Positions 4,335-63,872 of a stretch of DNA of 64,000 nt are shown here, piece after piece (position 1 is the stretch's first letter; every line of letters begins with the position of its first letter). The stretch lies in the NCBI GenBank assembly GCA_951406725.2, contig OX597817.1:132618001-132682000 (forward strand). Reading direction: 5' to 3'. Position numbers and translations under genes: made by a program. This stretch comes from Octopus vulgaris. Its lineage: Eukaryota. The notes beneath the pieces were generated by a model. The model made no database searches. It was given only the letters and a program-made list of their open reading frames with translations, and had not been told where the DNA came from.

Positions 4335-4480
4335 CGGGAAGGTTTATGAAAATAAACAAAAGACGAAGGCAGGTGGAGTACAAACAAACAAATGTATTAG
4401 TATGGCGCTCAGGAATAGAAATAGTAGTCTTTTACGTTTCGAGCCTACGCTCTTCGACAGAAAGATACACAGAAAAGAAA
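4334..4480 (-). mobile_element. ~150-200 bp microsatellite-inserted family C, copy 1 (minimal hammerhead-like)
   Basis: Minus 4465-4428 TCTTT-CTGTCGA-A-GAGC-GTAG-GCTC-GAAA-CG-TA-AAAGA; homologues at 28772, 41024, 41640, 62717. Confidence 0.75.
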
Positions 4481-5354: not shown

Positions 5355-5925
5355 CAGGCATGGCTGTGTGGTTTAGAAGCTTGCTTGGCAACAGTGCGGT
5401 TACGAGTTCAGTCCTGTTGTGTAGCGCCTTCTTTCTGTGTCTTCTACAGGGTGCTCAAAAAGTCTCTCTGCATTGAGTCTCAGCCTAGAAAGTGCTCACA
5501 CGGAAGTAAAAAAGCAATTAAATTTTATGCATTGAAAATGAAGGACGTCACTTTCAACACCTCTTGTAAAGTCTAATATATCTTTTTGTAGTCTTATACC
5601 AACCTATAAATATTTATTTTGCAATGAAATAATGCGAAGAGACTTTTTGAACACACTGTATCATAGCTGTGAGATGACCCATGCCTTGTGAGTGAATTCG
5701 GTGGACGAAATGTGTGTGTGTGTGGTAGTCCCCTCAATATCGCTTGACAACCGACCAACCGATGGTGGTGTGTTAACGTCCCTGTAACTTAGCTGTTCTG
5801 CAAAAGAGGCCGACAGAGTAAGTATTAGGTTTACAAAGAATAAATCCTGGGGGAGAATCGTTCGACTAAACGCGGTGATCAAGCAAGGCCACAGTCAAAT
5901 GACTGAAACAAACAAAAGAATAAAA
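5355..5925 (+). mobile_element. SINE family A copy interrupted by a MITE
   Basis: Head GGCATGGCTGTGTGGTTTAGAAGCTTGCTT; tail GTCAAATGACTGAAACAAACAAAAGAATAAAA. Confidence 0.8.
5447..5658. mobile_element. Tc1/mariner-type MITE
   Basis: TIRs CAGGGTGCTCAAAAAGTCTCT / AGAGACTTTTTGAACACACTG; TA on both flanks. Confidence 0.85.
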
Positions 5926-6534
5926 AATAGAACCAGTTTATTGGAGATAAATTCTCACAACGAAATGATATGTGGATCCGCAAGGGTCATACGACCCTTG
6001 GTTCAGAACCACTCAGCGAAGCCCTTTAAAGCGGTGTCCCAGCATGGATGTAGTCCAGTGAATGAAATAAGAAAAAGAAATTATCCGTAACTGCATAAAA
6101 TCTTTCAAACTAGACCTCCCACGTTATACTTATCCCAGCGACTTGATATGAAATACATCCGATGTTAAGGCAGGTTCGAATGAACAAAGTTGAATTTTAA
6201 AAGTTTATTATTTCAGCTTCGCTTCTTTAAACTTGACAGATGAACTTGTCTACAATAACGACAGACAGGTTTGCTAGATTGCGATCTGGCCTCCTCCTTC
6301 CTTCTCTCTAGATCAATTCGCAGTTTACCCACCCCACGCACGTTTTAATTTTTACCTTTTTATCTTTTTTTACTTAATCTTTCGTTATTTAACTTTCAAT
6401 GTAAATACATCCCCAAATCAAATTTCTCTTTCTCTCTCTCCTTCTAGCCCCCCTCACTCTCTTTCTGTTTACATTTATTCCTTTATTACCGGTTTCCTAA
6501 ACTTGCTTCCCCTCACACCACAATTTAAAGGCAA

Positions 6535-10360: not shown

Positions 10361-10501
10361 CAACTTCATAGGTGAGATGAGGAATTATGCACATTATTTA
10401 CGTTATTTACATTTGACGGATATTTGTCCTTAACTTGCTTGTTGTTAACACAACTTTTCGGCTGATATACCCCCCCAGCCGAGTTCGATTCCAGGCAGTG
10501 A

Positions 10502-10661
<160 letters not shown>

Positions 10662-10749
10662 AAGAAGAAGAAGAAGAAGAAGATGAAGAAGAAGAAGAAG
10701 AAGAAGAAGAAGAAGAAGAAGAAGAGGAGGTGGAGGAGGAAGAAGAAGA

Positions 10750-11258
10750 AGATGGTATAGGCACACACCAGAAAAGGTCGCAGAAAACGAGAAAGCAACC
10801 ATACTCTGGGATATGCCAATACACACAGATAGAGTAATTAAGGCCAACAGACCAGATATAGTTGTCAGAGATCATGAAGAAAAGTATGCTTTCTAATTGA
10901 TGTATCAATACCAGAAGATGACAACGTGTCTCTAAAAGAAATGAAGAAACTTTCAAAATACAAAGACCTGGAAATAGAGGTAACCAGAATGTGGAATCTA
11001 AAAACAGAAACAATCCCTATCATAGTAGGTGCATTAGGCATGATAAAAAAATATTCAGACAAATACATAACAAAAACACCAGGACTTATGAACACATATA
11101 ACATACAGAAAATTGCACTACTAGGCACTGCACACATCCTACGCAGAACACTTTCCATACAGTAACCATAAGAGCATCACAACAAATCACAGCACGTACC
11201 AAAGGCACACAGAGCTGCGCTCGGTAGTGAAGTGAAAGCTATAAAAATAAAACTACTG

Positions 11259-11259
<1 letters not shown>
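10750..11259 (+). mobile_element. 5'-truncated R4/Dong-clade LINE (restriction-like endonuclease C-terminus and 3' UTR)
   Basis: RWYRHTPEKVAENEKATILWDMPIHTDRVIKANRPDIVV, one frameshift, then CFLIDVSIPEDDNVSLKEMKKLSKYKDLEIEVTRMW...IPIIVGALG; PD-(D/E)xK RLE; ends in (TAA)n. Confidence 0.9.
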
Positions 11260-11352
<93 letters not shown>

Positions 11353-11403
11353 CCATTGAAAAAATACCTTAGGAATGAGAACCCGGGTTCGAAATTTCCT
11401 TAA

Positions 11404-11449
11404 GACACCTGATGAAGGCTGGAGGGTATATCAGCCAAAACGTTGTGTT
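11404..11449 (+). ncRNA. Minimal type-I hammerhead (G12A in this copy)
   Basis: GACAC-CTGATGA-A-GGCTG-loop-CAGCC-AAAA-CG-TT-GTGTT; the inverted copy at 10447-10480 retains CAGCC-GAAA. Confidence 0.8.
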
Positions 11450-12631
11450 AACAACAAACAAGAAGAGGGCAAATATCCGTCAAATGTAAATAATGTAAAT
11501 AATGAACGATATTTTCATCATTGGTGCTTATACAAAGTGATGAAATGAATGCTAATATTTGGAAGAAAAACTTTTATTGCCTTTAAGTAAATAGAGTAAA
11601 TTTCTCATTTTGTAGAACTACTATCACTTATTTCCTATCCTCTTCCTCCTACCATCAAGCTTAGAAAGTGCACTCATGCTGCACCTCTTACTTTAACTCA
11701 CCCCTTTTCTACTTTGTATTTTCTTGGGAAAAATATCATCGTCAGTAGAGCGGATTTTTCAAAGTAAATTACAGATAATTAATGACTAACCTTGGAATTT
11801 AAATTCACGAAACCTATTCTCGGTCTTAATATAAACCAATTCTTCAACAAATTGCGCTACTGTGAGAATCAGTGGTGTTGTGTTCGATAGTCAACGTTGC
11901 ACGTTAAGTTCGTTTTTTTATTGAGAAATGCAATAAGTTTTAGGCTCTTAAAGATTCTGCTCATCTCATAGATATCGTAGCAAATTGCTGTCATAGATTG
12001 AAAAGTGTGAAAAATTATCTTCACATTATTGACAAGCATGAAAGCAAATGATTAGAGGATATAGAAGCACATTTAAATAGTTTCACTCTATATAGTGTCA
12101 CCATGAAAGATTCTTTATATAACAGTATCATCTATTTATTTTTGGAAACGCTGTGGCAGAGGCGGACCTGAATATCTGATCGCTTCTATTTTCGTCATCG
12201 GATAACGTCATCTCCTCTCTTTAGACAATATATGTTCATAGCACACATAATTCACCATTGCAAGTGGGCGTTGAGACACCGAGGTGTTTTCTCCTGGTTG
12301 TGCGTCTCATCAGGGAATGCTACCCGCTACACCGATGAGTATGACAAAGCACAAGCTCTTTGGATTGGTGCTTTTACTGCGTGCAGTCCTTGAATTATTT
12401 TCTGTTTAGCAAGCTTTGGCATGCATCAATTAATAGATTGCTTTCTGATTTCTATAAACTCCAGACCGTTCCCTTGCGAGATCCATCGGTCCGGTGACAC
12501 ACATACATACACACATGTACGTACACATACAGATTCAATGTAGATTCATCTCTAAAAACTATCTATAATTCACCCATCACTAATAAAAATTTATCTAATT
12601 CACAGATGTCTGACGAATACAAATGTGTAAT

Positions 12632-14511: not shown

Positions 14512-14854
14512 ACAGATTGTGTATTGTCCTTCTCTACACAAAGAACAGAAAAACAAAATCCAAACAAACAACAGTAAAATATTTCCCGATTGACAAATAG
14601 AATTTCAAAGATGGCTGTTGTCCAATTCTGAATGTCATAATGTCATAAGTTGTAGGTGCTTAGCAGAACAGCCACTGCCATATTTTGGTAAATATTGCAA
14701 GGCATTAAGTCCCCACAAGAAGTAAGGTTTGAGTTATGAATATTAAGGAATGATTCCCATATACGTTTAAAGACAGACACGACACCCATTCATTATCCAT
14801 CACCAGTTCCCATTGATGACGGCTTCGTTTTGATTTCAATATATTCTTTTATTC

Positions 14855-15243
14855 TTATATTCTTTTATTTGTTTCAATCATTTGACTGCGACCATGTTGG
14901 AGCAGCGCCTATTGTCGAGCAAATCGACCCCAGAACTTATTCTTTGTAGGCACAGTACTTATCCTAGTGGTCTCTTTTGTCGAACAGCTAAGTTACAGGG
15001 ACGTAAACACACCAACATTGGTTGTCAAGCGATGGTGGGAGACAAACACAGACACACAAACATATATATACATATATATATATACAATGGGCTTCTTTCA
15101 GTTCCGTCTACTAAATCCACTCACAAGGCTTTGGTTGGCTCGAGACTATAGTAAAAGACACTTGCCTAAGGTACCACGCAGTGGGACTGAACCCGGAACC
15201 ATGTGGTTGGCAAGCAAGCTACTTACCACGCACAGCCACTCCT
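14855..15243 (-). mobile_element. SINE family A, near full length
   Basis: Reverse complement of head (GGAGTGGCTGTGCGTGGTAAGTAGCTTGCTTGCCAACCACATGGTTCCGGGTTCAGTCCC) and tail. Confidence 0.9.
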
Positions 15244-23151: not shown

Positions 23152-23219
23152 TATGAATGTATGTATGTGTGCATGTATATTCGATGGTATTCCTTCAGAA
23201 TATATATCTATATATTTTC

Positions 23220-23463
23220 TTATTCTTTTACTTGTATCAGTCATTTGACTGCGGCCATGCTGGAGCATCGCGTTTAGTCGAACAAATCGACCCCAGGACT
23301 TATGCTTTGTAAACGTAGTACTTATTCTATCAGACTCTTTTGCCGAACTGCTTAGTTACGGGTACGTAAACACACTAGCATCGGTTGTTAAGTGATGTTG
23401 GGAGTACAAACACAGACTCACAAACATACAGGCGCGCGCGCACACACACATACACACACAGAA

Positions 23464-28679: not shown

Positions 28680-28771
28680 TATATTATTATATTATATATA
28701 TATATATATATATCAATACATATATATATATACAAATATATACATACACATATATACATATGTATATAAAT

Positions 28772-28830
28772 AGATGTATTAGTTTAACGCTCGGGAAGTG
28801 AAAAAGTCTTTAACGGTTCGAGCCTACGCT
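28772..28830 (-). mobile_element. Family C fragment
   Basis: TGTATTAGTTTAACGCTCGGGAAGTGAAAAAGTCTTTAACGGTTCGAGCCTACGCT. Confidence 0.7.
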
Positions 28831-29985: not shown

Positions 29986-30359
29986 GCACAAGCCCACACA
30001 TGTATAAATAAATGATCTGCTTGCGTTTCTCTTATCCATCCATATATCTGTTTGTATATCTCCATCATAACGTGTCATTCTAATGTCTGTTTTTTCTACG
30101 TATTTTTGTTTATATTTAATTGTCTCTTCTTTTTAGTTCTTTTCTTTTATGTTGGCCTTCTTACTTTTTATTCGCTTCAAATAATGTTCCCCGACTTTTA
30201 TGATAAATCTCTTTAATGCCTTCATCAACATCATCATCATATGGAAGTATTAAGTACCAGCGTCATACTGAGGTCAATTCCTTTCTACAATATTCGTCTA
30301 GTTGTGCTGATATTCGAATCCATCTACTTTATCTCCACCTTTGTCACCATTGCTGCAGC

Positions 30360-30411
<52 letters not shown>

Positions 30412-31228
30412 CAATGGAGGATGAGGAGAATGGTGATGTCGGTTTGTTTGTTTTTATTATTGCTATTGTTGCACCGCATAACAATGTTGCTTTTGTTACT
30501 TTTTATGGTTGTGTTGTTGTTGTTGTTGTTGTTGTTGTTTTTGTTGTTATTGTTACTGTTGTGTTGGTCCTATTGGTGTTGGTGTTGGTGCTGGCAGTAG
30601 CGATACTTCTCGTAGGGATGTGGTGGAGGTGATGAGGGTACTGCTATTGTTATCGGTGATGATGATGATGATGATGATGATGACGACGGCGACGACGATG
30701 ATGATGAAGATGAAGATGACAGTGATGATGGTGATGATGATGATGATGGTGATGGCGAGGGTGATGGTGATGATGATGATAGTAATGATTTTACAGCAAT
30801 TTTATAGTAATGGCTATAACTGTAGCTGTATTCCTTTCTATTTATCTCACCATTCTCTCCCCCCACCCACCGTCAGCACCCGCCATTTTACTATCTCCAT
30901 CATTATGACGTTCCGTATAACCTTTTTAATGTTTTAGTTTTTCTTCCCTTCATCTGTCTTCCGTCTTTTATTTTATTTATTTATTTTCTTTGTTGTATCG
31001 TCTTGTCACAATTCAATGGCGAATTTCGTACAATGAAGTTGATGTGGTAAGAATAAAAAAAGAGAGAGAAAAAAATATATACACTCCCACCAAATGGTGG
31101 ACGGGAGCAATAGAACCATATACACAACAACAGCAACAACAACAAATTCACAAACAACAATAATTACTGCAATTCAGATAATACGAAATAAAATAAAGCA
31201 AAATCTATTAGAAATATAATAAAAAAAC

Positions 31229-31245
31229 ATGGCTGCCACTGAGTG
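31229..31245 (+). CDS. Candidate first coding micro-exon (MAATE-W/C) of an unidentified gene
   Basis: AAAAAAAC-ATGG context then GCTGCCACTGAGTG|GTAAGT donor, after an A-rich unique leader; no downstream exon identified. Confidence 0.3.
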
Positions 31246-31638
31246 GTAAGTACGGCAATTAGTTTTAAGAAAGTAGGGAGTTCAGGGCCTTGTTCTTAAA
31301 ACTGAACACCCTAGAGGTCGCAATGCGACTTCATCATCGTCACAGCTGTCGTGGCAGACGTTAGAGAAAAACGAGGGAGAGATGGGGAGGCGGCGGTGGT
31401 GTTGGTGCATTAATGCATTTTGTTATTAATACAGTTTTGTCGTTTATTGCATGTAATGTTTTAGATTCCTTTATGGTCTTATGATCTCTAAACTCGCTTA
31501 GATATCTTTATCAAAGATATTTTCTATCTCTGCTTTAGACCTTGCTTCAAATTCGTCACCGTCATCTTCATCAACAAGAAATACAAGAACAAAAATTAAG
31601 ATACATATAAATATACATATGCATATATACATACAAGC

Positions 31639-31680
<42 letters not shown>

Positions 31681-31717
31681 TCACAAACACTCACACACGC
31701 ACTTTATATATATATGG

Positions 31718-31752
<35 letters not shown>

Positions 31753-31762
31753 CATGTAGGTA

Positions 31763-31793
<31 letters not shown>

Positions 31794-32452
31794 ATACACA
31801 TAAATATATATATATATTTACATACATGTGTTTACATAGATACACATACATATATATACACACATACATATACACGTGTGTGTATGTGTATGTGTGTATA
31901 CATATATAACGCTATCTCAATTCTCAGCTTGAACCTCAATCGTTTCCACCCACGACCACCCACACCAAAATGAAAATTAACATTTACTATCGGCTGCACT
32001 TTAACAGTATAACATAACAAGTTATATCACTGTTATTATCTATTCGGGATAACAAAAGCATAAAACACACACACACACACACATACGCATTAAATATACA
32101 CATACTCAAACATTAATCTTTTTATTGTGATTATGAATATTTTTTCATTCAACAGCTATTAATATTGTTGTTTTCTTAAACATGACATTTAAATGTTTTT
32201 TTGTTAGACAAGTATGTATATTTTGAATGAATGTGCGTGCGTTTGTGTGTGTATGTTTATATGTGTGAGTGAGTGTGTGTATGTGTGTTGCGCAAAGAAG
32301 GTATGTAAATGATTCTGAGGTGTTGTACTTATATACAAGGAGACACTGATATATAATATCTCGCACCCGGATATAAACACACAGCGAAACATATTGGGAT
32401 GAACGCACACATACACATATCGAGAAAATATTTTAACCCTTCCACAGAAATA

Positions 32453-32556
<104 letters not shown>

Positions 32557-32569
32557 TATGTATATATGA

Positions 32570-32890
32570 TGAAATATTTTCTAACTCTGGCACGTGACCA
32601 GCAATTTTGAAAAGAGAGATTAGTTGATTTCACCTACCCTAGTAGTTCTACTACATCGTCCCTGAGAGGCTGAAATTCGGTCTGGGCCAAATTTGAACCC
32701 AATATCAAAAGACCCGAAAGAAATGCCGCTTACCACTTTGTCTGACGCATTAACGATTCTGCTAAGAAGCTTGCTTCCCAACCACGTGGTCCCGGGTTCA
32801 GTCCCCCTGCTTAACACCTTGAGCAAGGGTCTTCTTCTATAGCCTCGGGCCGACCAAAGCCTAGTGAAAGAAGCTTGTCGTATATATATA

Positions 32891-32934
<44 letters not shown>

Positions 32935-33130
32935 TGTTTGTCTTTGTTTGTTCCCCCACCACTGCTTGACAACCGATGTTGGTATGTTTACGTCTCCATA
33001 ACCTAGCAGTTCGGCGAAACAGGGCAATAGAATAAGTACGAGACTTACAAAGAACAAGTCGATTTATTCGACTAAAGGTTGTGCTCCAACATGGCCGCTG
33101 TCCAATGACTAAAACAAATAAAAGAAAAGA
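32570..33130. mobile_element. Degenerate family B SINE (minus) abutting family A SINE (plus, 32763-33130)
   Basis: TAACGATTCTGCTA followed directly by AGAAGCTTGCTTCCCAACCACGTGGTCCCGGGTTCAGTCCC. Confidence 0.78.
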
Positions 33131-33144
33131 ATGAAATAAAAGAT

Positions 33145-33190
<46 letters not shown>

Positions 33191-33292
33191 TATATATGTA
33201 TATATATAATTACATACATTCATACATACACAATCACACACACACACTTACACATTGTTATATATGTATATGTGTGTGTATACATATACATA

Positions 33293-33448
<156 letters not shown>

Positions 33449-33551
33449 ACATACATACATTCATACAAACAATCACACGCACACTTATATACATGGTTAT
33501 ATATGTATATATGTGTGTGTATGTATATATGTGTGTGTATGTATATATGTA

Positions 33552-33605
<54 letters not shown>

Positions 33606-33719
33606 GGTCCCGGGTTGAGTCGGGGTTAACCACAGTAAATAAGGTACTCAATACATATATTGAGTAATGATTTCTTTTGAATGAAACAGTTCTAGTCCTG
33701 TAGAAGCTCCTTCTATATA

Positions 33720-33769
<50 letters not shown>

Positions 33770-33770
<1 letters not shown>

Positions 33771-34171
33771 GTGAAATAGAAAGATGAATAATCTTGTAGC
33801 AGATTAATCAAAAGTTTAACCGATACCTTGGTAGCAAAAATCACAGCAGAAGACAGCACGGTTGGAGGTACAACCATATGGTGTTGCAACCGTGCGTTGG
33901 TGCGGATAATTGAATTTTAATATTATTGGTGAATTGAAGAAATGGGCCATGGGCTCTTAGGAGCCTAGTTCGATTTGTTTTGCTCCGCCTCTGTTCTGTT
34001 TTTGTTTTTTCCCAACGGATTTCCTATTTCTTCCTGAAGAGAAAGACACAATATGGTCTCATTATTCAATCGGATTTTGGTAAATTGTGCCTTTCGAAAC
34101 ACGTGTAGAATGAAATAAAACGATTTCTGTGCAATCTTCGTTCAGCTCCATTTCTTCAATTCACCAGTAAC
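33770..34171 (+). mobile_element. (TA)n-inserted Penelope-like element with inverted 27-bp end copy
   Basis: ATTATTGGTGAATTGAAGAAATGG at 33922 versus CCATTTCTTCAATTCACCAGTAAC ending 34171; hammerhead then AATAAA. Confidence 0.75.
34027..34115 (+). ncRNA. Intact-core type-I hammerhead ribozyme
   Basis: TTC-CTGAAGA-GAAAGACACAAT...ATTGTGCCTTTC-GAAA-CACGTG-TA-GAA; predicted GUA cleavage after 34107. Confidence 0.85.
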
Positions 34172-35235
34172 ATATATATATATATATATACGCACACTTG
34201 TACTCACTCACATGCCTACATATATGATTATCTGTGTTTCATGCTTAATGTAGAAACGCCGTAAAATATCAAATTTACTCTAGCAATTGTCTAGAGATTA
34301 ACACTTACGGACGTTCTGTAATAAAAAAATCTCATTATTCATTAGAAGCAGACGAAAGTCATCGAGCAGTGATTGTCGAGAACGCTAGAAGTGTTTTTCT
34401 GCTCGTTGAGTGTCGTAGCAAGTAGCAAATACTTACAGCCAATAGATTTCCCAAGCTCACCATTTTGCTATGACTTTAGAAGCCATTCTGCTTTTTTTTT
34501 GTTTTTTTTATTTGTGAAGATCTCATGATCCTGGCACCTGTTTGCGACGCATGGCTTTTTGAGATCGAATTTCGATCAGAGCATTCAACCAGCCTACTTT
34601 TTTCACCTGTGGCATCTTTTATTTCCATATTTATTATTTGTTTATTGTCAGGGTTGGCGGGATAGGGGCAATGACAATCTTCTGGGTCTTCAAACCTGGT
34701 GGATGATGGGAGAAGGAAAATGTTCTTGAATCGAATATCTGAACTGAATACTTGCGATAGGTTTGGCTCCCTCAAAAGCACCCTCAAATCTTCCAAAATG
34801 GCGTTACGATGAAGGTCTCTACTTCAATGGCTTCTATCATGGTTCTACGCTGTTCGTTTCTAGAAAATGCTTGAATAATTTGCTCATATCTTACAAAGGT
34901 ATATGGCATTAGAGGACGAAGAATTCAACATTTTTACGACCATATATGAATATTCTTAATGAAACCACATACAGTGATGTAGGGGAAAAATTTCAGCTAA
35001 AGTAATTTTTTTGACTCAGCGCATAAAATACAGACGTAAATTGTGCAATTAGAAACAAATCACAATCTGCGAAATTAATCACAAAAGTGAATATGAGAGG
35101 GTTAGTTCTAACAAAGCAGAATATAAGTACCTGAGAGAATAAAGTTATATTTGTAATTCCGGCAAAAATATTCTTAAAGGACACGGTGCAATTAAATATG
35201 TGAATACAATTGATTATAGAAAAATACGTTACTAT

Positions 35236-35280
<45 letters not shown>

Positions 35281-35740
35281 GTTTAGCGTCCGCTTTCCAT
35301 GCTAGCATGGGTTGGACAGTTCAACTGGAGTCTGGGAAGCCAGAAGGCTGCACCAGGCCCAATCTGATCTGGCAATGTTTCTAAAGCTGGATGCCCTTCC
35401 TAACGCCAACTACTCCGTGAGTGTAGTGGCTGCTTTTTACGTGCCACCGACACAGGTGCCAGACGAGTCTGGCAAACGGCCACGAACGGATGGTACTTTT
35501 TACGTGCCACCGGCACGAGGCCAGTCGGGGCGGCGCTGGCAACGGCCACGTTCGGATGGTTCTCTTACGTTCCACCGGCACTAGTATCACAGCTGTAATT
35601 TCCATTGATGTTGATCGATTTCGATTCTCACTTGCCTCAACAGGTCTTCACAAGTAGAGTTTTGTGTCCCAAGAAGGAAAGGTATGCATAAGTGGACTGA
35701 CTACATCCCATGTAGAGGCCACGGGTTATGGTCTCACAGT
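35236..35740 (-). mobile_element. SINE family E with (GAT)n tail (RTE-type 3' end)
   Basis: Minus GTTGGCGTTAGGAAGGGCATCCAG domain, tail GGACGCTAAAC-(GAT)n; internal triplicated TTACGT(G/T)CCACCG. Confidence 0.75.
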
Positions 35741-35864
35741 AATGTAATACACTGAAATATGAACCTAAAAGTTTTGATTATAGGATTGCTCGATAAAGGT
35801 AGGCCTAGGGTTAAAGAGCAACAACATTAATCATATGATTTTACACAAAACCATTGCTTCTGCT

Positions 35865-35896
<32 letters not shown>

Positions 35897-36507
35897 TGCT
35901 GCTTCCGTTGCTGTTGTTTCTGTTGTTAATACTATCATTATTGTTGTTCTTTGGCCTTAAGTTATTCCTGATTAAGGGCACCTGTGATCAAAAGCATTTC
36001 ACAAATTCCATCAGTTGTTTCCACATTATATATCCAAACTCATTATCTAGTATAACCCTCCGTTTTTAAGGGGATGGGTTACGGTATGAGGAAGATTCTG
36101 GCTAGCATTTCTATCAGGTTGATTGACTGCATATCGGTTCCATTGTTGGCACCAAATTCAATGTCTCGGATGCTTTAGGGAAAATATTTGTTGAAGTCAT
36201 TTTATTTTTCTGAAAGCAATTAAGAGTTGCATGTCTGCCAATATCAACACTTGTTTCAATGTAGCAATTATTTATGGATATACGGTAAATGAAATGAAAT
36301 TTGGAAGAACTTATATTAATTTCTGATTTGATTATAGTATAATTGGCCAAAGTTTAATCTTATATCTTGATGAACTTTAGTTATAGAATTCATTGATAGT
36401 TAATTAATACATAATAATGATTAAAATATAGACAAAATATTGTTCATTTTTTTTACCTTACAGCTGTTTAATATGTCATACGTAACGTCTTTGTTTTCAA
36501 CACGCGC

Positions 36508-36540
<33 letters not shown>

Positions 36541-36604
36541 GACAGAGACAGAGAACAAAAAATGAGTAGGGATTAACGGTTCAACACGTTGAAATATATA
36601 TATA

Positions 36605-36865
36605 TATAAAATAGTGTACCTTTAAACTCAAAAGAAACTAACTTTAACAGGTAATTTTACACGCTAGAAGAAGCAGTCAAAACGCCAAAACCGATTTCGA
36701 AGGGAATGAAAAATAAAAACATTTACCATGTTATTTTTTTACGGTTATACCTAGGTTTCGAATATTTTTAGCAAATTTTTGGGTCGATTTGACTGCTTCT
36801 TCTAGCGTGTAAAATTAACTGTTAAAGGTAGTTTCTCTTGAGTTTAAATGTGCACTAATTTTATA
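36605..36865. mobile_element. Foldback/MITE with ~80-bp inverted arms
   Basis: 36605-36684 versus 36785-36865, sharing AATTTTACACGCTAGAAGAAGCAGTCAAA. Confidence 0.8.
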
Positions 36866-36956
36866 TTGAGAATATGTTATCTATTGACTTTTTATACTTG
36901 CTAGGCCACTGGTAGTGACATATCTAAAAATATTCGCTCTACCCTATATATTTTAC

Positions 36957-37040
<84 letters not shown>

Positions 37041-37469
37041 GTGATCCAGTACCTTGCACTACAGCAATCCCTATGGAAAGCCATGTTTCCATGGTTTGAA
37101 ACAGTCGGTAATCTTCATACAGTTAGTTCTTAATATATCTTGTAAAAGAACACTTTATGTCTCTAAATTTCGCATACAGGAGCGTCCCCTTATTTTTGAC
37201 TTCTCACACTGCAATGACCAAGTGTGTGTGTGGGAGGGGGTTGAGCGTGCGCGTGTGTGCGCGTGCATCTGTATGTATGTATTCATTTTATATGATATAC
37301 TAATACTCACAGCATCTATAATGATTCTGTTCTCCCTCGTATAATTGAATCACTGATGAACAAGTGTGTGTGTGTCAATATATGTACGTAAATACACGCA
37401 CACATACATACGTATATTTATGTGTGTATATATATACATAAGCACACATATATACATATACGTGCACAC

Positions 37470-37533
<64 letters not shown>

Positions 37534-37851
37534 GCATGTATCTATGTGTATATACGTATATATATACACATACATATATATATATGCATATATATATATA
37601 TACACACATACATACATACATATATATATGTATGTATCTATGTGTATATACATATATATATATATATGTACGTATGCATGTATATATATATATGTGTGTG
37701 TGTGTGTGTATATATATAAATATGTATGTATGTATGCATGTATGCATGTGCCTAGTGTGATAATACGACTATCTGAAAATGAAGCTGTATTTGCATCATT
37801 CAATAGAAGTTACAATGGTGATGATGATGATGATAGTGATGATGATGATGG

Positions 37852-37889
<38 letters not shown>

Positions 37890-38399
37890 TCGTCGACGAC
37901 GACGAAGGCGTTTAAGTGTTAAGTGTGCGAAGTGGTTGGAGAAAGCACTCGGCCTCTCGGAATCATATTCACAACTGACAGTTAACTAATTGAAAAAACG
38001 TCAACTGAGATGTTTCTGGTTGTGTTATAAATGTGGTTCGACTGGACCCGACCACCTAAGATCAAGCATTCCACCGTGATTGGGAAAGCCGATAGCCACT
38101 TGCTCTGTCTCCTCTGGCGCTTTCTATTGGACTCGAACATGGTCAAAAGTTTACCGAATCAGCATCGACACAAACACATACACATTTTCAAACGCACACA
38201 ACGCAAATACACACACACACACACAAACATATACACATACACACGCGTTCGCATCCACAGAAACATACGTGTGTATACTGACAATGACACGCAGACGCAC
38301 AAACATCCACATCCACAAGCATACAAACAAACAGAGTCATGCATGTATATACACACATAAATATGGATACATACATCAACACACACACTCACTCAGAAA

Positions 38400-38999: not shown

Positions 39000-39205
39000 T
39001 CTGTGGATGTGTTTGTGTGTCTGTCTTAGTCCCCCAACCTCGCTTGACAACCGATGTTGGTGTGTTTACGTCCTCATAACCTAGCAGTTCGGCAAAAGAG
39101 ACCAATAGAATAAGTACTAGGCTTGCAAAGAATACGTCCCGGAGTCGATTTACTCGAGTAAAGGCGGCGTTCCAGCATGGCCGCAGTCAAATGACTGAAA
39201 GAAAA
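39000..39205 (+). mobile_element. SINE family A 3' half
   Basis: GCTTGACAACCGATGTTGGTGTGTTTACGTCC...CAGCATGGCCGCAGTCAAATGACTGAAA. Confidence 0.85.
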
Positions 39206-39430: not shown

Positions 39431-39594
39431 ACATGCTTGGAAATATACGCACAAACATTCTTTTATTCTTTTATATGTTTCAGTAATTTGATTGCCGTCA
39501 GCCTGGAGCACCACCTTTTAATCGAAGAGATCGAGTGGGGACAGACACAGACACAGACACACTCACATAAACACACACACACACACACAACTTC

Positions 39595-40090
39595 CCAAAC
39601 CTACCCCTTCCCTCCTTCAAACGAACCCACAACCTACATGACCACCTGTTCCACAGTTTCTTCCCTAACCTCACCTCCCAACCTAGCTCGTTCCCCTGCT
39701 CCCGCCCTTGCTGTCACACTTGCCTCTACCTCTCCAACACCACCATCCTCACAGGCACCACTCATCGTCCCTATCACATCACTGATTCCTTTACCTGCAC
39801 TTCTAGCAACGTCATTTATTGCATTTCCTGCTCTTTCTGCCCTTCTCTGTACATCGGTCAAACGGGACGTCGCTTGGGCTGACTGGTTCGCGGAGCATCT
39901 CCGAGACATTAGAATCTGCAATGACATCCCGGTCTTGCACCATTTCCACTCTACCGGTCATTCATTACAACACTTGTCTGTGTCCAGATTGTCTTTGCAC
40001 AGGAGCCGTCCGGACTTCCGCCTTCGCCGTGAACAAGATTTAATCTCTCTTCGCTCACTTCCTCCACATGGGTTCAACTCCCCTTCTCTC
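39595..40090 (+). pseudogene. Penelope-like element GIY-YIG endonuclease (Neptune-like), frameshifted
   Basis: PLPSFKRTHNLHDHL...PCSRPCCHTC...FTCTSSNVIYCISCSFCPSLYIGQTGRRL, frameshift, ADWFAEHLRDI...HFHSTGHS...REQDLI...PHGFN. Confidence 0.9.
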
Positions 40091-40389
40091 CTCCCTTCAT
40101 CTGAAACCCACTCCCTCTCGTCACTCCTGCCCACTTTTTCTCTTCTTCTCATTCTTTGCAACCCTCTCCCTCTGTGTTCTTATTAACTGACTTTCTCTTT
40201 CCATTCATAACTGTCTGCCTGTCAATTACTTTCTCCCTCTCTCTTTTCCCCCTCTCTCTATTTCATCCTCTCTCTCTTCCTCTATTACTTCGCCTTTGAA
40301 CCGTTTATACCAACGCGTATATTCAAACAACAAACACTTTCCTTTCAAGTTTAACTTTCGCTTACTCTAGCGCATTTACCCACTTCAAT

Positions 40390-41024: not shown

Positions 41025-41190
41025 TTGAAATTTACAGAATAACAAAAAATGAAGACAAGTATATAAAAAATAAACAGCTATATTAGTTTAACGCTCGGGA
41101 AGACGTTTCGAGCCTACGCTCTTCAATGGAAAGGAACACGAGAAAATAAACAGAGAGAGAATAAAAAACTTTTGGAGCCAGCGGTCAAAT
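41024..41190 (-). mobile_element. Family C copy
   Basis: TATTAGTTTAACGCTCGGGA...ACGTTTCGAGCCTACGCTCTTCAATGGAAAGGAACAC. Confidence 0.75.
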
Positions 41191-41639: not shown

Positions 41640-41848
41640 AGTTGGAATTTACAAAAAAAAAAAAAAAAAGACGAAGACGGGTGTGTAAACAACAAACAGA
41701 TCTGTTAGTTTATCGCTCGGGTAGTGAGAAAGTCTTTTACGTTTCAAGCCTACACTTTTCAGCAGAAAGGAACACAGAAATAAACAAGGAGAGAAAATAG
41801 AAAAAGGTATAGTGGCTAGCGATCAGTCATGGCGAATGCCGGACAGGC

Positions 41849-46625: not shown

Positions 46626-46724
46626 GTGTGTGTATTTATACTTACATATGAACATGTATACACACACACATATATATATACATACATTTTATATATGTAT
46701 GTATGTGTGTGTACGTTTATTCTG

Positions 46725-47150
46725 TTATTCTTCTACTTATTTCAGTCATTTGACTCTGGCCATGTTGGAGCACCGACTTTAGTCGAATAAATCTACACCT
46801 GGACATATTTTTGTAAGTCCAGTACTTATTCTATAGGTCTATTTTGCCGATCTGCTAAGTTACGGGGGCGTAAACACAACATCGGTTGTCAAGGGATGGT
46901 GGGTGAGACAAACACAGACACACAAATACATGCACACATACATATATACATAAATACATACATATACACACGCATATATATACATACGCAACGGGCTTCT
47001 TTTCAGTTTCCCTCTATCAAATCCACTCAAAAGCTTTTGGTCGGCCCGAGGCTATATTAGAAGACACCTACCCAAGGTGCCACGCAATGAGACTGAACTC
47101 AGAACCATGTGGTTGGGAAGCAAGCTTCTTACCACACAGGCACGCCTGCG
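46725..47150 (-). mobile_element. SINE family A, full length
   Basis: Head reverse complement of CAAGCTTCTTACCACACAGGCACGCC; tail TTTCAGTCATTTGACTCTGGCC. Confidence 0.9.
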
Positions 47151-47246: not shown

Positions 47247-48003
47247 TGAGAGGTATTAGTATCAAGGAGACCCAAGGTGGCAGGTAACACGTATTTATTA
47301 CTTAAAATTCTTATCTTTCCTACCTCTCCGCTACTCCTCTCCCATCCTTCATATCTTGACCACCAACTAACACACCTTTTTTCGTTTTTACACTTTCTTT
47401 TCACTCTTTCTTTTTCCTAATTTTCTCTTCTTTTTTCTACATTTTCTGTTCTTGTTTTTATTCTCTCTTCCTCTTTCTTTACTTCTTTTTTCTCACCTTT
47501 TCCTTTTGACCTCTCTCCTCATTTTAACATACACATCTCTTCTCCCCTCTCTATCCACTTACTACTAATACTACATTCCCAAATTTTCATTCACACCACA
47601 AACCCCTTTTGAATGAACAGCACCTGGAATCTACGTCTACACACTTTCCATTTGTGATGACAAAATATGAACTTCTATTAGAATTTACATACCACAGACA
47701 GGAAACATTTCCACCGCTTCTACACAGTACTTTCTTTGAATAATGGAAGTGCAACTATAAGATATTTATATATTTTTTATTTTCATTTCTACATTCATTC
47801 TCCTATTTTCCCTCTATACACCTTATTCGCTTTTCCAAAATAATTCCTTATATTGAACTCTAATATTTCCTTCTATTTAGCCATCTCACATCGTCTCTGA
47901 TGAAGGGATATCCCTAATGTCCCAGAAACAGCTTAAGACTAACTCTCCGTTTACGAATGTCCTGAAAATTCCACAGCCTTGGCTTTGTTGTTTCAGTTTA
48001 TTT
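47247..48003 (+). mobile_element. Family F microsatellite-inserted element with hammerhead near the 3' end
   Basis: Starts TGAGAGGTATTAGTATC..GACCCAA (shared with 52302 minus); GTCT-CTGATGA-AGGGATA...TGTCCCA-GAAA-CAGCT-TA-AGAC at 47893-47939. Confidence 0.75.
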
Positions 48004-49400: not shown

Positions 49401-49566
49401 CTTTATTGCTCTCTGCTGATGAGTATAATAGTGGAATGGCGGTGCCACAGCATGGCCGCAGCTCTGAGCTGAAACTAGAGACAAAAAAAGTCGTGCTGGT
49501 CATTCATATGGACACATGACAAATCGATAGTAGAGCCACACACACACACACATATATATTATATTT

Positions 49567-49778
49567 TTTTATTCTTTTATTTGTTTCAGTCATTTGACTG
49601 CGGCCATGCTTGAACTCCGATTTTGATCGAACAAATCGACCCCAGGACTTATTCCTTGTAAGCCTAGTGCTTATTCTATTGGTCTCTTTTGCCGAACTGA
49701 TAAGTTACGAGGACGTAAACACACCAACATCGGTCATCGGTTGTCAAGCGATGGTATGAGGATAAACACAAACACGCA

Positions 49779-49813
<35 letters not shown>

Positions 49814-49930
49814 GACGGGTTTCTTTCAGTTTCCGGCTACAAAATCCACACATAAGGCTTTGGCGGTCTGAGATTATAGTAGAAGACACCTTCCCAAGGT
49901 GCCACGCATTGGGACTGAACTCGGAACCAT
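49567..49930 (-). mobile_element. SINE family A
   Basis: TTGTTTCAGTCATTTGACTGCGGCCATGCT...GGGACTGAACTCGGAACCAT. Confidence 0.88.
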
Positions 49931-51610: not shown

Positions 51611-51996
51611 TGAGAAGGCAAATCACAGTGACGTTTTTGTGTGCACAGTTTGTGACAGAACATGTCCGTTTTTGCTGGCCTTAAATCTCATCTGCGAACC
51701 CATGGAAAACGAACCTCCACCAATTATTCCGCCTATGTGTCTGTGCACACCTTTGAATGCAATGTATGCCAGAAGGTTTGCAAATCCAACGGAGGCCTCA
51801 AAAGACATTTTAAGATCTACAAAGATCAGAACTTCACTGCAGCTTTTGGTGGTCCAAATCGGACTTGCAATCTATGTGGGTCTCTTTTCAAAACATTGTC
51901 TGGTTTAAAAAGCCACATAAGATGCCACAATGGTTCTAAGATGTAGGTACAGGAGGAGGTCAAACTCTGCAGAAGGAGTACACAACCACCACCATA
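51608..51996 (+). pseudogene. RTE-type LINE 3' end with three C2H2-like fingers
   Basis: CTVCDRTC..AGLKSHLRTH (frameshift), CNVCQKVCKSNGGLKRH, CNLCGSLFKTLSGLKSHIRCH; short 3' UTR; embedded in (TA)n; no TGEKP linkers. Confidence 0.6.
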
Positions 51997-53869: not shown

Positions 53870-55077
53870 CAGGGATTGGACAAAATAAGGAAACACTTAG
53901 CATCATAGCATCATAATCTTGAAATATCTATAAAACCGTTAAAAGCTTGTTATTTTTGTTTTTTTAATTTATTATTAGTGTTGCTTAATATGTTTTGCTA
54001 AAATTGCTATTTCTTTTCAGATATCATCAGAAAAAGGTAATTAAAATGCATTAAAATGACAGATCTATCGGATTTTCAAAAATGTCAAATTGTTGGTGTT
54101 CGTCTGGCAGACGCTAGCGTAAGGAAAACAACCGAAATGTTTGGTGTATCAAGAAGTAGTCTCGAAAGTAATGAGAGCCTTTGAGAATGAGGGAAAAAAA
54201 TCTCCTCGTCGAAACAAAACTCCGGAAGAAAACCAAAAGTTTCAGATAAGAGCAGTCGACTCTTACGCGAATTGTTAGAGAAGATCACAAAAGTACAGTT
54301 TCCCCAAATTACTGCAGAGCTTAATGACCACCTTGAGAACTCAGTTTCCACAAACACTGTTCGCCGGGAGCTGCACAAAGCAGGATTTCACGGGAGGGTT
54401 ACAATCAGAAATTTACTACTTTCAAAAACAAATGTTGCAATCTACAGAATTGGTCCCTAGAGCAGTAGAAGAATGTCATATTCTCGGACGAATCATCCTT
54501 TATCTTATTTCCGACCACTGGCCGGGAAAACATGTGGAGTCAGCCAAAAGAAGCATTTGACCCAGATTGCTTTCTTCCAACTGTTAAACATGGAGGAGGA
54601 TCTGTGATGATCTGGGGGGAGGGGGCTATATCTTGGAAATCCGCCGGTCCAGCGGTTTCCCTTCATGGCAGAATTAATAGTCAAGACTATTTAAGCATTT
54701 TAGGATCAAATTCATCCTATGGTTGCGGAACTGTTTCCGAGGGAAAATGCAATCTTTCAGGATGATAATGCACCAATTCACACAGCTAAAGTTGTTACTG
54801 AATGGCACGAAGAACATTCTAGTGAAGTTGAACATCTTATCTGGTCACCAAAGTCCCCAGATCTCAATATTATTAAATATTCTTGGTGCATTTTAGAAAA
54901 ACAAGTAAGGAGTCGATATCCCCCACCATCATCACAACAAGAACTGGAGACTGCTTTAGCTGAAGAATGGACAAAAATTCCTTTGGAAACAATTCAAACT
55001 TTGTACGAGTCCATACCTCGTAGAATTCAAGCTGTTTGAAATTTTATGGTGTTTCCATTTATTTTGTCCAACCCTTG
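53870..55077 (+). mobile_element. Tc1-like transposon, near full length, inactive
   Basis: TIRs CAGGGATTGGACAAAATAAGGAAACAC / GTGTTTCCATTTATTTTGTCCAACCCTTG; TA flanks. Confidence 0.93.
54056..55039 (+). pseudogene. Tc1 DDE transposase, multiple frameshifts
   Basis: MTDLSDFQKCQIVG...; VIFSDESSF; TVKHGGGSVMIWG; FQDDNAPIH; SPDLNII. Confidence 0.92.
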
Positions 55078-61888: not shown

Positions 61889-61953
<65 letters not shown>

Positions 61954-61955
<2 letters not shown>

Positions 61956-62187
61956 TCTCTTTTACTCTTTTACTCTTTTACTTGTTTCAGTCATTTGACT
62001 GCGGCCATGCTGGTGCACCGCCTTTAGTCGAGCAAATCGACCCCGGGACTTATTCTTTGTAAGCCCAGTACTTATTCTATCAGTCTCTTTTGCCGAACCG
62101 CTAAGTGACGGAGACGGGGACGTAAGCGCACCAGCATCGGTTGTCAAGCAATGCTAGGGGGACAAACACAGACACACAAACACACGC

Positions 62188-62716: not shown

Positions 62717-62866
62717 ATTTGTAGAAAAACAAAAGACGAAGACAGGTGTATGAACAGTAAGCAGGTGTATTAGTTTGACGCTCAGGAACAATGGAAGAAG
62801 TCTTTTCCGTTTCGAGCCTACGCTCGTCAGAAAGGAACACGATGAATTAAACAGAGAGAGGATGAA
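62717..62866 (-). mobile_element. Family C copy
   Basis: Minus CCTTT-CTGACGA-GCGTAGGCTC-GAAA-CGGA-AAAGA at 62835-62801. Confidence 0.78.
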
Positions 62867-63062: not shown

Positions 63063-63806
63063 GTGGATTCCTTGTATGCTGAAGATAGACTCCAAGTCGT
63101 CCTACAACGAAAAATGTGTTCTCAAATTAGCAGAGTGCTAGTTGTTTGCAAGCAAGACAAATGAAAGGTAAATAAAAAAAGCAGTTAATTCTATACTTCG
63201 AACTTTCGCCATAAATATTTAAGTAATTATCCGTGGCTCCTCAGTGAAATCGACACATAATAATCGATGTAGATACCAATCGCCTCCCTGAGAGGATACA
63301 TGCGTATAGAGTTCCACTATCATACATTGCAATTCCGATTCAAATGTCTTCAACTAGCGCGCCAAGCCAGAAAAAGAAAACCCGCAGTAAATAAAATTCA
63401 GCAGTGAATTAACTGATCAGGGAACAAAGATATTGAAAACTTAAATGATAAGGCGTGAAATTAACTTTTTTATTTATTTCTTCTTATTATTTTTTTTCTT
63501 CGTAGTTTCAGCTCAGAGCTGTGGCCATGCTAGTGCACCGCCGTTTTGCTACCCTGTTCATACTGAGAGCCTTGGCCAGCATACGTAAAAAACGCCCGAG
63601 AACTGCAAATTATGTTCAAATATATAAATAAAAGGAAAAGCCACTTAGTCGTTTGCTCACGAAAACTGTCTTTCTCAAATTAGCAGTGCGCTACATGTTT
63701 GCGTGCAAGACAAATGAAAGCAGTTTGGTGTCTATCTTCAGCATACAAGGAATCCACTTAGTGGCTTTTCCCCTTATATATTTGAATATAATTTGCAGTC
63801 CTCGGA
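63063..63806. repeat. Composite direct plus inverted repeat structure
   Basis: 63063-63094 inverted at 63725-63757; 63119-63166 direct at 63672-63720; 63596-63650 inverted at ~63760-63806. Confidence 0.75.
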
Positions 63807-63872
63807 TGTTTATATGAGTGTGTATGTATACATGTACATATACATACATATATACATCTATATACATACATA

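Follow-up and report, generated by a model that had tools for sequence, protein, structure and literature searches.

Whether the hammerhead-like motif at this octopus locus is a genuine ribozyme, where it came from, and whether it would cut RNA in its present setting are the questions taken up here. The analysis covered 64,000 nucleotides of the Octopus vulgaris genome (the window). Our data make it fairly probable, taken as a whole, that the motif has the complete sequence of a type I hammerhead and lies in a (TA)n-flanked insert that likely represents the 3' end of a Penelope-like retrotransposon (PLE); the ribozyme is predicted to cut only as a dimer, is likely silent, and is single-copy here.

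We read the + strand directly and paired it base by base (Table 1). All core nucleotides were present, as the earlier note had claimed, and the motif (34025-34119) showed the arrangement that defines type I (CUGANGA / GAAA / UH, three helices, helix I open). Positions follow the usual hammerhead numbering. By its sequence, the motif is a genuine type I hammerhead with a complete core. Stem II joins 34041-34052 to 34084-34095 through 11 pairs and one A·C mismatch (34046/34090), is closed by G10.1-C11.1, and carries a 31-nt loop (34053-34083), which agrees with the long, once-mismatched stem and large loop reported earlier. We observed no extra base between A9 and G10.1. The palindromic stem III (34099-34106, perfect over all 8 nt), the GUA site at 34107 and the AATAAA 7 nt further on (34114-34119) were likewise borne out, and the cut would fall at 34107/34108. 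The description of stem I as short was wrong. It begins at 34025 and has 3 pairs, a bulged U (34111) and then 6 pairs (34025-34030 with 34112-34117), taking in four of the six bases of AATAAA (34114-34117). The only unusual trait of the motif is its 55-nt arm II, above the 26-nt limit of the published descriptor.

Table 1. Coordinates of the ribozyme, the insert and other features of the window (strand as + or -, a dot where no strand applies).
Feature	Position	Strand	Basis or remark
First catalytic box, C3-A9	34034-34040	+	read from sequence; scans
Stem I 5' strand, 9 nt	34025-34033	+	partners 34108-34110 and 34112-34117
Arm II, 55 nt	34041-34095	+	mean pair probability 0.95 (95-nt fragment)
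GAAA box (G12-A15.1)	34096-34099	+	sequence
Stem III, 8-nt palindrome	34099-34106	+	sequence, base-by-base pairing
U16.1 and A17 (end of GUA site)	34106 and 34107	+	sequence
Stem I 3' strand plus AATAAA	34108-34119	+	bulged U34111; AATAAA = 34114-34119
Upstream U-rich segment, inferred 3' UTR of the element	33946-34024	+	predicted pairing with core and stem II 5' strand
Insert carrying the ribozyme, inferred non-coding PLE relic	33768-34173	+	(TA)n both sides
Left (TA)n tract, inferred target	33714-33767	.	sequence
Right (TA)n tract, inferred target	34172-34190	.	sequence
Inverted repeat, left arm, 26 nt	33920-33945	-	24/26 match, E 4e-05
Inverted repeat, right arm, end of ribozyme copy, runs into (TA)n	34148-34173	+	
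Left segment, 152 nt with hairpins	33768-33919	.	fold z -2.45, 3/200
Decayed minimal hammerhead-like repeats, five	4354-4470, 28768-28830, 41025-41168, 41657-41780, 62727-62840	-	
Zinc-knuckle frame, 298 aa	24096-24989	-	Pfam
C2H2 finger fragment	51656-51943	+	Pfam
Broken Tc1 transposase	54191-55036	+	Pfam
Dispersed repeat copies	5739-5927, 14839-15202, 23200-23425, 32935-33147, 39011-39204, 46716-46926, 49552-49930, 61948-62181		window

The window was compared with 400 block-wise dinucleotide shuffles of itself, searched on both strands with thresholds fixed after the motif was seen. A loose match arose in 21/400 shuffles and a stem II of at least 8 pairs in 2/400. Neither a stem II of at least 11 pairs nor one of at least 8 pairs with a palindrome of at least 6 was reached in any shuffle (0/400 each). 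In the real window the motif was the sole loose match, and it ranked first among four in a relaxed scan. It is thus the best preserved hammerhead in the 64 kb by both scans, in keeping with the earlier note's description of it as the best intact one. Some measures would fit a chance assembly of common short words: CTGANGA alone was near chance level in the window (26 vs 23.2), the stability of the 106-nt region was ordinary compared to its own shuffles (z 0.23, 107/200), and Rfam returned no hammerhead. The stem II that the shuffles did not reproduce argues against chance, as do the dimer fold and the insert layout described below, which lay outside the search criteria, and such an assembly is extremely improbable. 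Arm II by itself was borderline stable (z -1.96, 11/200). Rfam gave no hammerhead match at the gathering score across the whole 64-kb window, and none at E values up to 10 in 33770-34170, where one chance match appeared. In an E-value run over 30000-38000, no hammerhead was among the 150 of 168 matches listed, nearly all of which were microsatellite-driven. The enlarged arm II may explain the Rfam miss.

We then set the motif beside published hammerheads. The strict minimal descriptor allows a helix II of 3-7 pairs, a loop II of 3-10 nt, no helix III insert, and an arm II of 26 nt at most (PMC4209133). The motif lies outside it on helix and loop size and on stem III (11 pairs, 31-nt loop, 8-nt palindrome), and also lacks the expected extra base between 9 and 10.1, as do some Hydra and metazoan rows. 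Given the 26-nt ceiling, the present motif would escape the descriptor. By eye, the extra base after A9 was missing from 10/26 rows of the Hydra clade (PMC8557442) compared to 2/56 rows of the metazoan alignment (PMC4209133). Arm II exceeded 23 nt in no row of that metazoan alignment and was 26 nt or less in the Hydra rows. The metazoan PLE minimal hammerheads and their short-palindrome variants share with our motif the core, G10.1-C11.1, an enlarged helix II and a palindromic helix III, together with U-rich upstream and AU-rich downstream flanks and mostly single, dispersed copies (PMC4209133). Compared to this minimal type, the octopus motif has no post-A9 base, an oversized helix and loop II, and a stem I that reaches 9 pairs. 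A precedent for the long arm is PLE-X1_sMoe of spike moss (File S2, PMC8557442), whose arm II is ~54 nt with a 9-pair stem and a 35-nt loop, although this element is from a plant, lacks the endonuclease and targets rDNA. A literature search for Penelope, hammerhead and AATAAA found no paper combining them. The term 'long stem II' occurred in none of the papers listed, and the supplements of Lunse et al., on dimer cleavage, and of a bioRxiv preprint may hold similar long-arm variants. Among the papers listed for octopus hammerheads, none described PLE hammerheads of octopus in its main text, though File S2 of PMC8557442 gives one for Hydra-1_Obim.

The 406-bp insert that carries the motif provides the evidence on origin. 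We observed that the left arm of its inverted repeat, read on the - strand, extends 152 nt further, up to the left (TA)n tract. The insert can thus be read as a direct copy beside an inverted truncated copy, with a sharp junction at 33945/33946. Such a layout and insertion at (TA)n have both been described for PLEs (PMC8557442), which account for 6.83% of the O. vulgaris genome, in 190 families (PMC13282606). The one-sided extension beyond the direct copy is 152 nt, far longer than the 30-40-nt tail at one end described for PLEs (PMC8557442), which counts against this reading. The best reading of this left segment is that it continues the inverted copy. The (TA)n target is that of the Hydra clade, is common to Naiads and hence is non-diagnostic, and the window is AT-rich and dense in microsatellites.

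No second copy of the insert or of the motif was found within the 64-kb window, and no homologue in bacterial or archaeal genomes (one gapped exact pattern), plasmids or phages. A Pfam scan of the insert frames gave no match, and no coding remnant of a reverse transcriptase (RT) or GIY-YIG domain was found. One insert frame (33770-33916, -) had 2 weak multi-stretch matches among 1.84 billion proteins (E 3e-06 and 7e-05). The absence of a PLE ORF is as expected for a short truncated copy. Because the defining ORF is missing from the insert and no homologue was found in the collections searched, we infer the PLE origin from layout, target and ribozyme shape.

The layout could have arisen by twin priming, a generally known idea. 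Reverse transcription would have been primed from (TA)n at two RNA sites, giving a short direct copy (33946-34173) fused to one in inverse orientation (33945-33768), with point changes piling up after insertion. PAc, a Poseidon element of Anolis carolinensis, shows two reverse-transcription start sites with extension of both strands, to which we liken the present insert, and, as here, its ribozyme lies slightly upstream of the copy's 3' end and its targets are AT-rich (PMC11167929). The PAc ribozyme is without stem III and overlaps the ORF start (PMC11167929); here the loop II ATG (34053) opens only 21 codons, which stop at the TAA inside AATAAA.

The same segments also admit an internally deleted non-autonomous PLE. 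Its 5' UTR would be 33768-33945, running in the same sense as the ribozyme up to an ATG (33942-33944), with the element's 3' end fused to it. Inspection by eye showed several short, weak colinear blocks common to 33768-33945 (+) and the first 172 nt of Hydra-1_Obim, and the distances from 5' boundary to ATG are close (172 vs 174 nt). This match requires one indel of about 23 nt and another of about 30 nt, however, and its best block has a hand score of about 22, near the shuffle mean (23.8) of a similar alignment test. A deleted 5' UTR would also leave the 26-nt inverted repeat unexplained, and the frame from the ATG ends after 8 codons. We hold this alternative to be unlikely.

Two further candidates, a lone monomer of a non-LTR retrozyme (small tandem repeats that give rise to circular RNA) and a Naiad 3' end, appear quite unlikely even together. 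Non-LTR retrozymes are short non-coding repeats of animals that carry a type I hammerhead, and a PLE origin has been proposed for them (PMC7229834; bioRxiv 10.64898/2026.07.22.740005). The size (about 230-400 nt) and low GC content suit their monomers (PMC7229834), and solo monomers exist (bioRxiv 10.64898/2026.07.22.740005). These sources describe tandem arrays, canonical helix sizes and loop contacts, whereas the insert is single and partly inverted, and we found neither a tandem unit nor a tandem repeat at the locus. The canonical form has a 6-pair stem I, a 4-pair stem II and loop contacts (PMC4209133). As for Naiads, those of octopus insert at (TA)n, and in eight Naiads the two halves of the core are separated by 35-50 nt (PMC8557442). 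By eye, though, the published 3' ends of Naiad_Obim, Naiad_Ovul and Naiad_Omin are unlike the insert (PMC8557442). Exact motif searches of the supplement of that paper were empty, with the proviso that line breaks in it could conceal matches.

With the PLE reading preferred, the likeliest parent is a member of the Hydra clade (Hydra-1_Crog, Penelope-17_HM, Penelope-1_SK, Hydra-1_Obim; PMC8557442), of a family other than the published Hydra-1_Obim. Hydra-clade ribozymes are type I, lie near the 3' end with a U-rich region upstream, share the (TA)n target and an AC...GU stem III of 3-4 pairs, and often have no extra base after A9 (PMC8557442). Hydra-1_Crog has a bulged stem I too, and Penelope-13_HM an inverted truncated copy (PMC8557442). 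The octopus insert differs in having a 55-nt arm II compared to 26 nt or less, in being without an ORF, and in a stem III of 8 nt without a central loop compared to 9-10 nt (PMC8557442). By eye, the published Hydra-1_Obim ribozyme is unlike the motif outside the core (PMC8557442). The hammerhead of Drosophila willistoni has the identical 8-nt palindrome geometry and A17 (PMC4209133). Because the stem III span differs from the Hydra rows and the 8-nt geometry is shared with D. willistoni, the clade assignment is tentative.

We assessed activity by folding models, whose output is an equilibrium prediction that omits the non-standard pairs of the core, tertiary contacts and co-transcriptional folding. 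In a monomer, stem III was predicted as a 2-pair hairpin at +2.4 kcal/mol, compared to -10.3 kcal/mol for the self-duplex. For a pair of 34024-34118 RNAs, the structure of lowest energy was a classical double hammerhead (-44.7 kcal/mol) with both cores unpaired. The two-copy ensemble reached -46.8 compared to 2 x -18.0 for the monomers, with an intermolecular probability of 0.97 for stem III and 0.74 for stem I. The motif thus combines a short palindromic helix III predicted to pair between two copies with the G10.1-C11.1 pair and the enlarged helix II of the dimer type. PLE hammerheads are type I, have a short palindromic stem III and act as dimers (PMC4209133; review PMC6765202), and single minimal motifs were uncut in vitro as monomers and weakly cut as dimers (PMC4209133).

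Longer RNAs behaved differently in the models. The probability of an active-like monomer fold was about 0.02-0.03 at 95 nt, 5e-4 at 141 nt, 2e-7 at 228 nt and 2e-6 at 406 nt, and that of the dimer stem I was 0.01 or less once the RNA was at least 141 nt long. Flanks, notably the upstream U-rich tract, were predicted to pair with the core, which would cost the longer RNAs their active fold. These predictions suggest that cleavage would occur only in a dimer of two molecules. The palindromes of two RNA copies would form an 8-pair stem III, the copies would swap stem I strands, and both cores would then be open for cutting after A34107. In the parent element, tandem copies within one transcript may have supplied the partner, so that dimer cutting in such transcripts is what we infer, perhaps with help from the element's protein, as is reported for anole PAc. 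Cleavage of PAc required protein, and RNA-seq ends at its cut site were absent (PMC11167929). At the present locus the ribozyme is likely silent, a prediction that is soft because of what the models ignore.

The earlier note had proposed that the motif could cleave a host intron. This was unsupported: neither a host gene nor a transcription strand was found, the motif is single-copy, and misfolding is predicted in its flanks. Pfam searches of 170 complexity-filtered frames and extra ones across the window gave only transposon-type domains and one C2H2 fragment above the cut-off; the matches were a zinc knuckle, two Tc1 transposase domains and the C2H2 piece. The C2H2 fragment lies 17 kb from the motif, may be host-derived, and appears frameshifted. 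A first exon scan of the window gave nothing, and a looser one gave 52 candidates with no recognisable chain among the 17 listed. A crude splice scan proposed 14 candidate exons on the + strand and 19 on the - strand, 33 in all, again with no recognisable chain. The motif could still lie within an intron of a large gene. To the right of the insert, about 1 kb of non-repetitive DNA (34190-35238) holds a 115-aa frame (34479-34823, -), which had no Pfam match and no Atlas match. No splice donor was found in the insert. The first AG past the U-rich tract (34038-34039) lies within the first catalytic box, has a weak splice-acceptor score and sits 14 nt before the ATG at 34053; splicing there would delete most of the box. 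The Penelope element of Drosophila virilis has an intron whose end falls at helix I (PMC4209133).

The AATAAA is a putative poly(A) signal downstream of the cut, and cleavage would detach it from the upstream RNA. Cleavage and polyadenylation of that RNA would therefore be mutually exclusive. A ribozyme used by the host in an intron or 3' UTR, either cutting the + transcript or competing with polyadenylation at AATAAA, might be read from the overlap of the extended stem I with AATAAA and from a core that is intact whereas the window's other hammerhead-like motifs are damaged. We judge such use very unlikely. Window scans found no host gene, the motif is a single copy with a dimer-type stem III, misfolding is predicted in context, and the insert shows signs of decay (2/26 arm differences and one stem II mismatch). 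By a count by eye, AAUAAA is also found in the 3' flank of 9/56 published metazoan motifs (PMC4209133). AATAAA is present in 1/26 Hydra rows (PMC8557442), and 1.2% of window positions have an AATAAA starting 10 nt away or less.

Overall, the motif is a well-preserved representative of a known, abundant ribozyme kind. Animal genomes contain PLE hammerheads by the thousand (PMC4209133), and the best reading is of limited import because both they and PLEs are already known to be abundant. The 55-nt arm II shows that published descriptors overlook such motifs. With its 9-pair stem I and 8-nt palindrome, the motif is well suited to testing dimer cleavage and competition with polyadenylation. A bolder proposal is that octopus PLE families carry long-arm hammerheads invisible to standard descriptors, in which the folded stem I masks AATAAA, so that dimer cutting and polyadenylation would be alternative fates of the element RNA, a ribozyme/poly(A) switch. 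We regard this as rather doubtful. If it were true, cephalopod PLE hammerheads would be undercounted, some published 'half-core' cases would be real ribozymes, and the role of PLE hammerheads would become directly testable.

Several other hammerhead-like motifs occur in the window. A second long-arm motif (63175-63250, -; first box 63238-63244) has intact boxes, a 34-nt arm II, a GUA site, a stem III one change short of a 10-nt palindrome, and a damaged stem I. A 62-nt block of it recurs in an inverted-repeat unit at 63560-63830. The two long-arm hammerheads (34025-34119 and 63175-63250) did not align beyond chance, with 85/300 shuffles scoring equally well. A minimal hammerhead at 11409 (+), whose GAAA box has become AAAA, has an inverted copy at 10392-10481. 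This hammerhead-bearing unit (10392-10481 / 11416-11503) has the same direct-plus-inverted layout as the main insert. Between its two copies (10392-11504 of the window) lies a retroelement endonuclease fragment (10878-11162), itself between (AAT)n tracts, whose best named match is an Octopus bimaculoides protein (86%).

Every copy in the family of five decayed repeats (Table 1) has an altered or damaged first box. Position 6 is not A in at least 2 of them, possibly a family-level variant. Two related, decayed hammerhead-like motifs at 47897 (+) and about 52120 (-) match at 75% over 117 nt. The (TA)n run of the main insert holds another short insert (33603-33713), which has a perfect hairpin followed by GAAA, a near-palindrome and GUA, and is without the first catalytic box; it is possibly another PLE 3' piece. 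A frameshifted fragment at 39571-40200 (+) presumably resembles a PLE GIY-YIG endonuclease. Our searches with this fragment (39.6-40.1 kb) returned no relative and no Pfam match, and no hammerhead was found 3' of it. The dispersed repeat copies of the window belong to a high-copy repeat of 200-380 nt, about 80% alike, which is probably a SINE.
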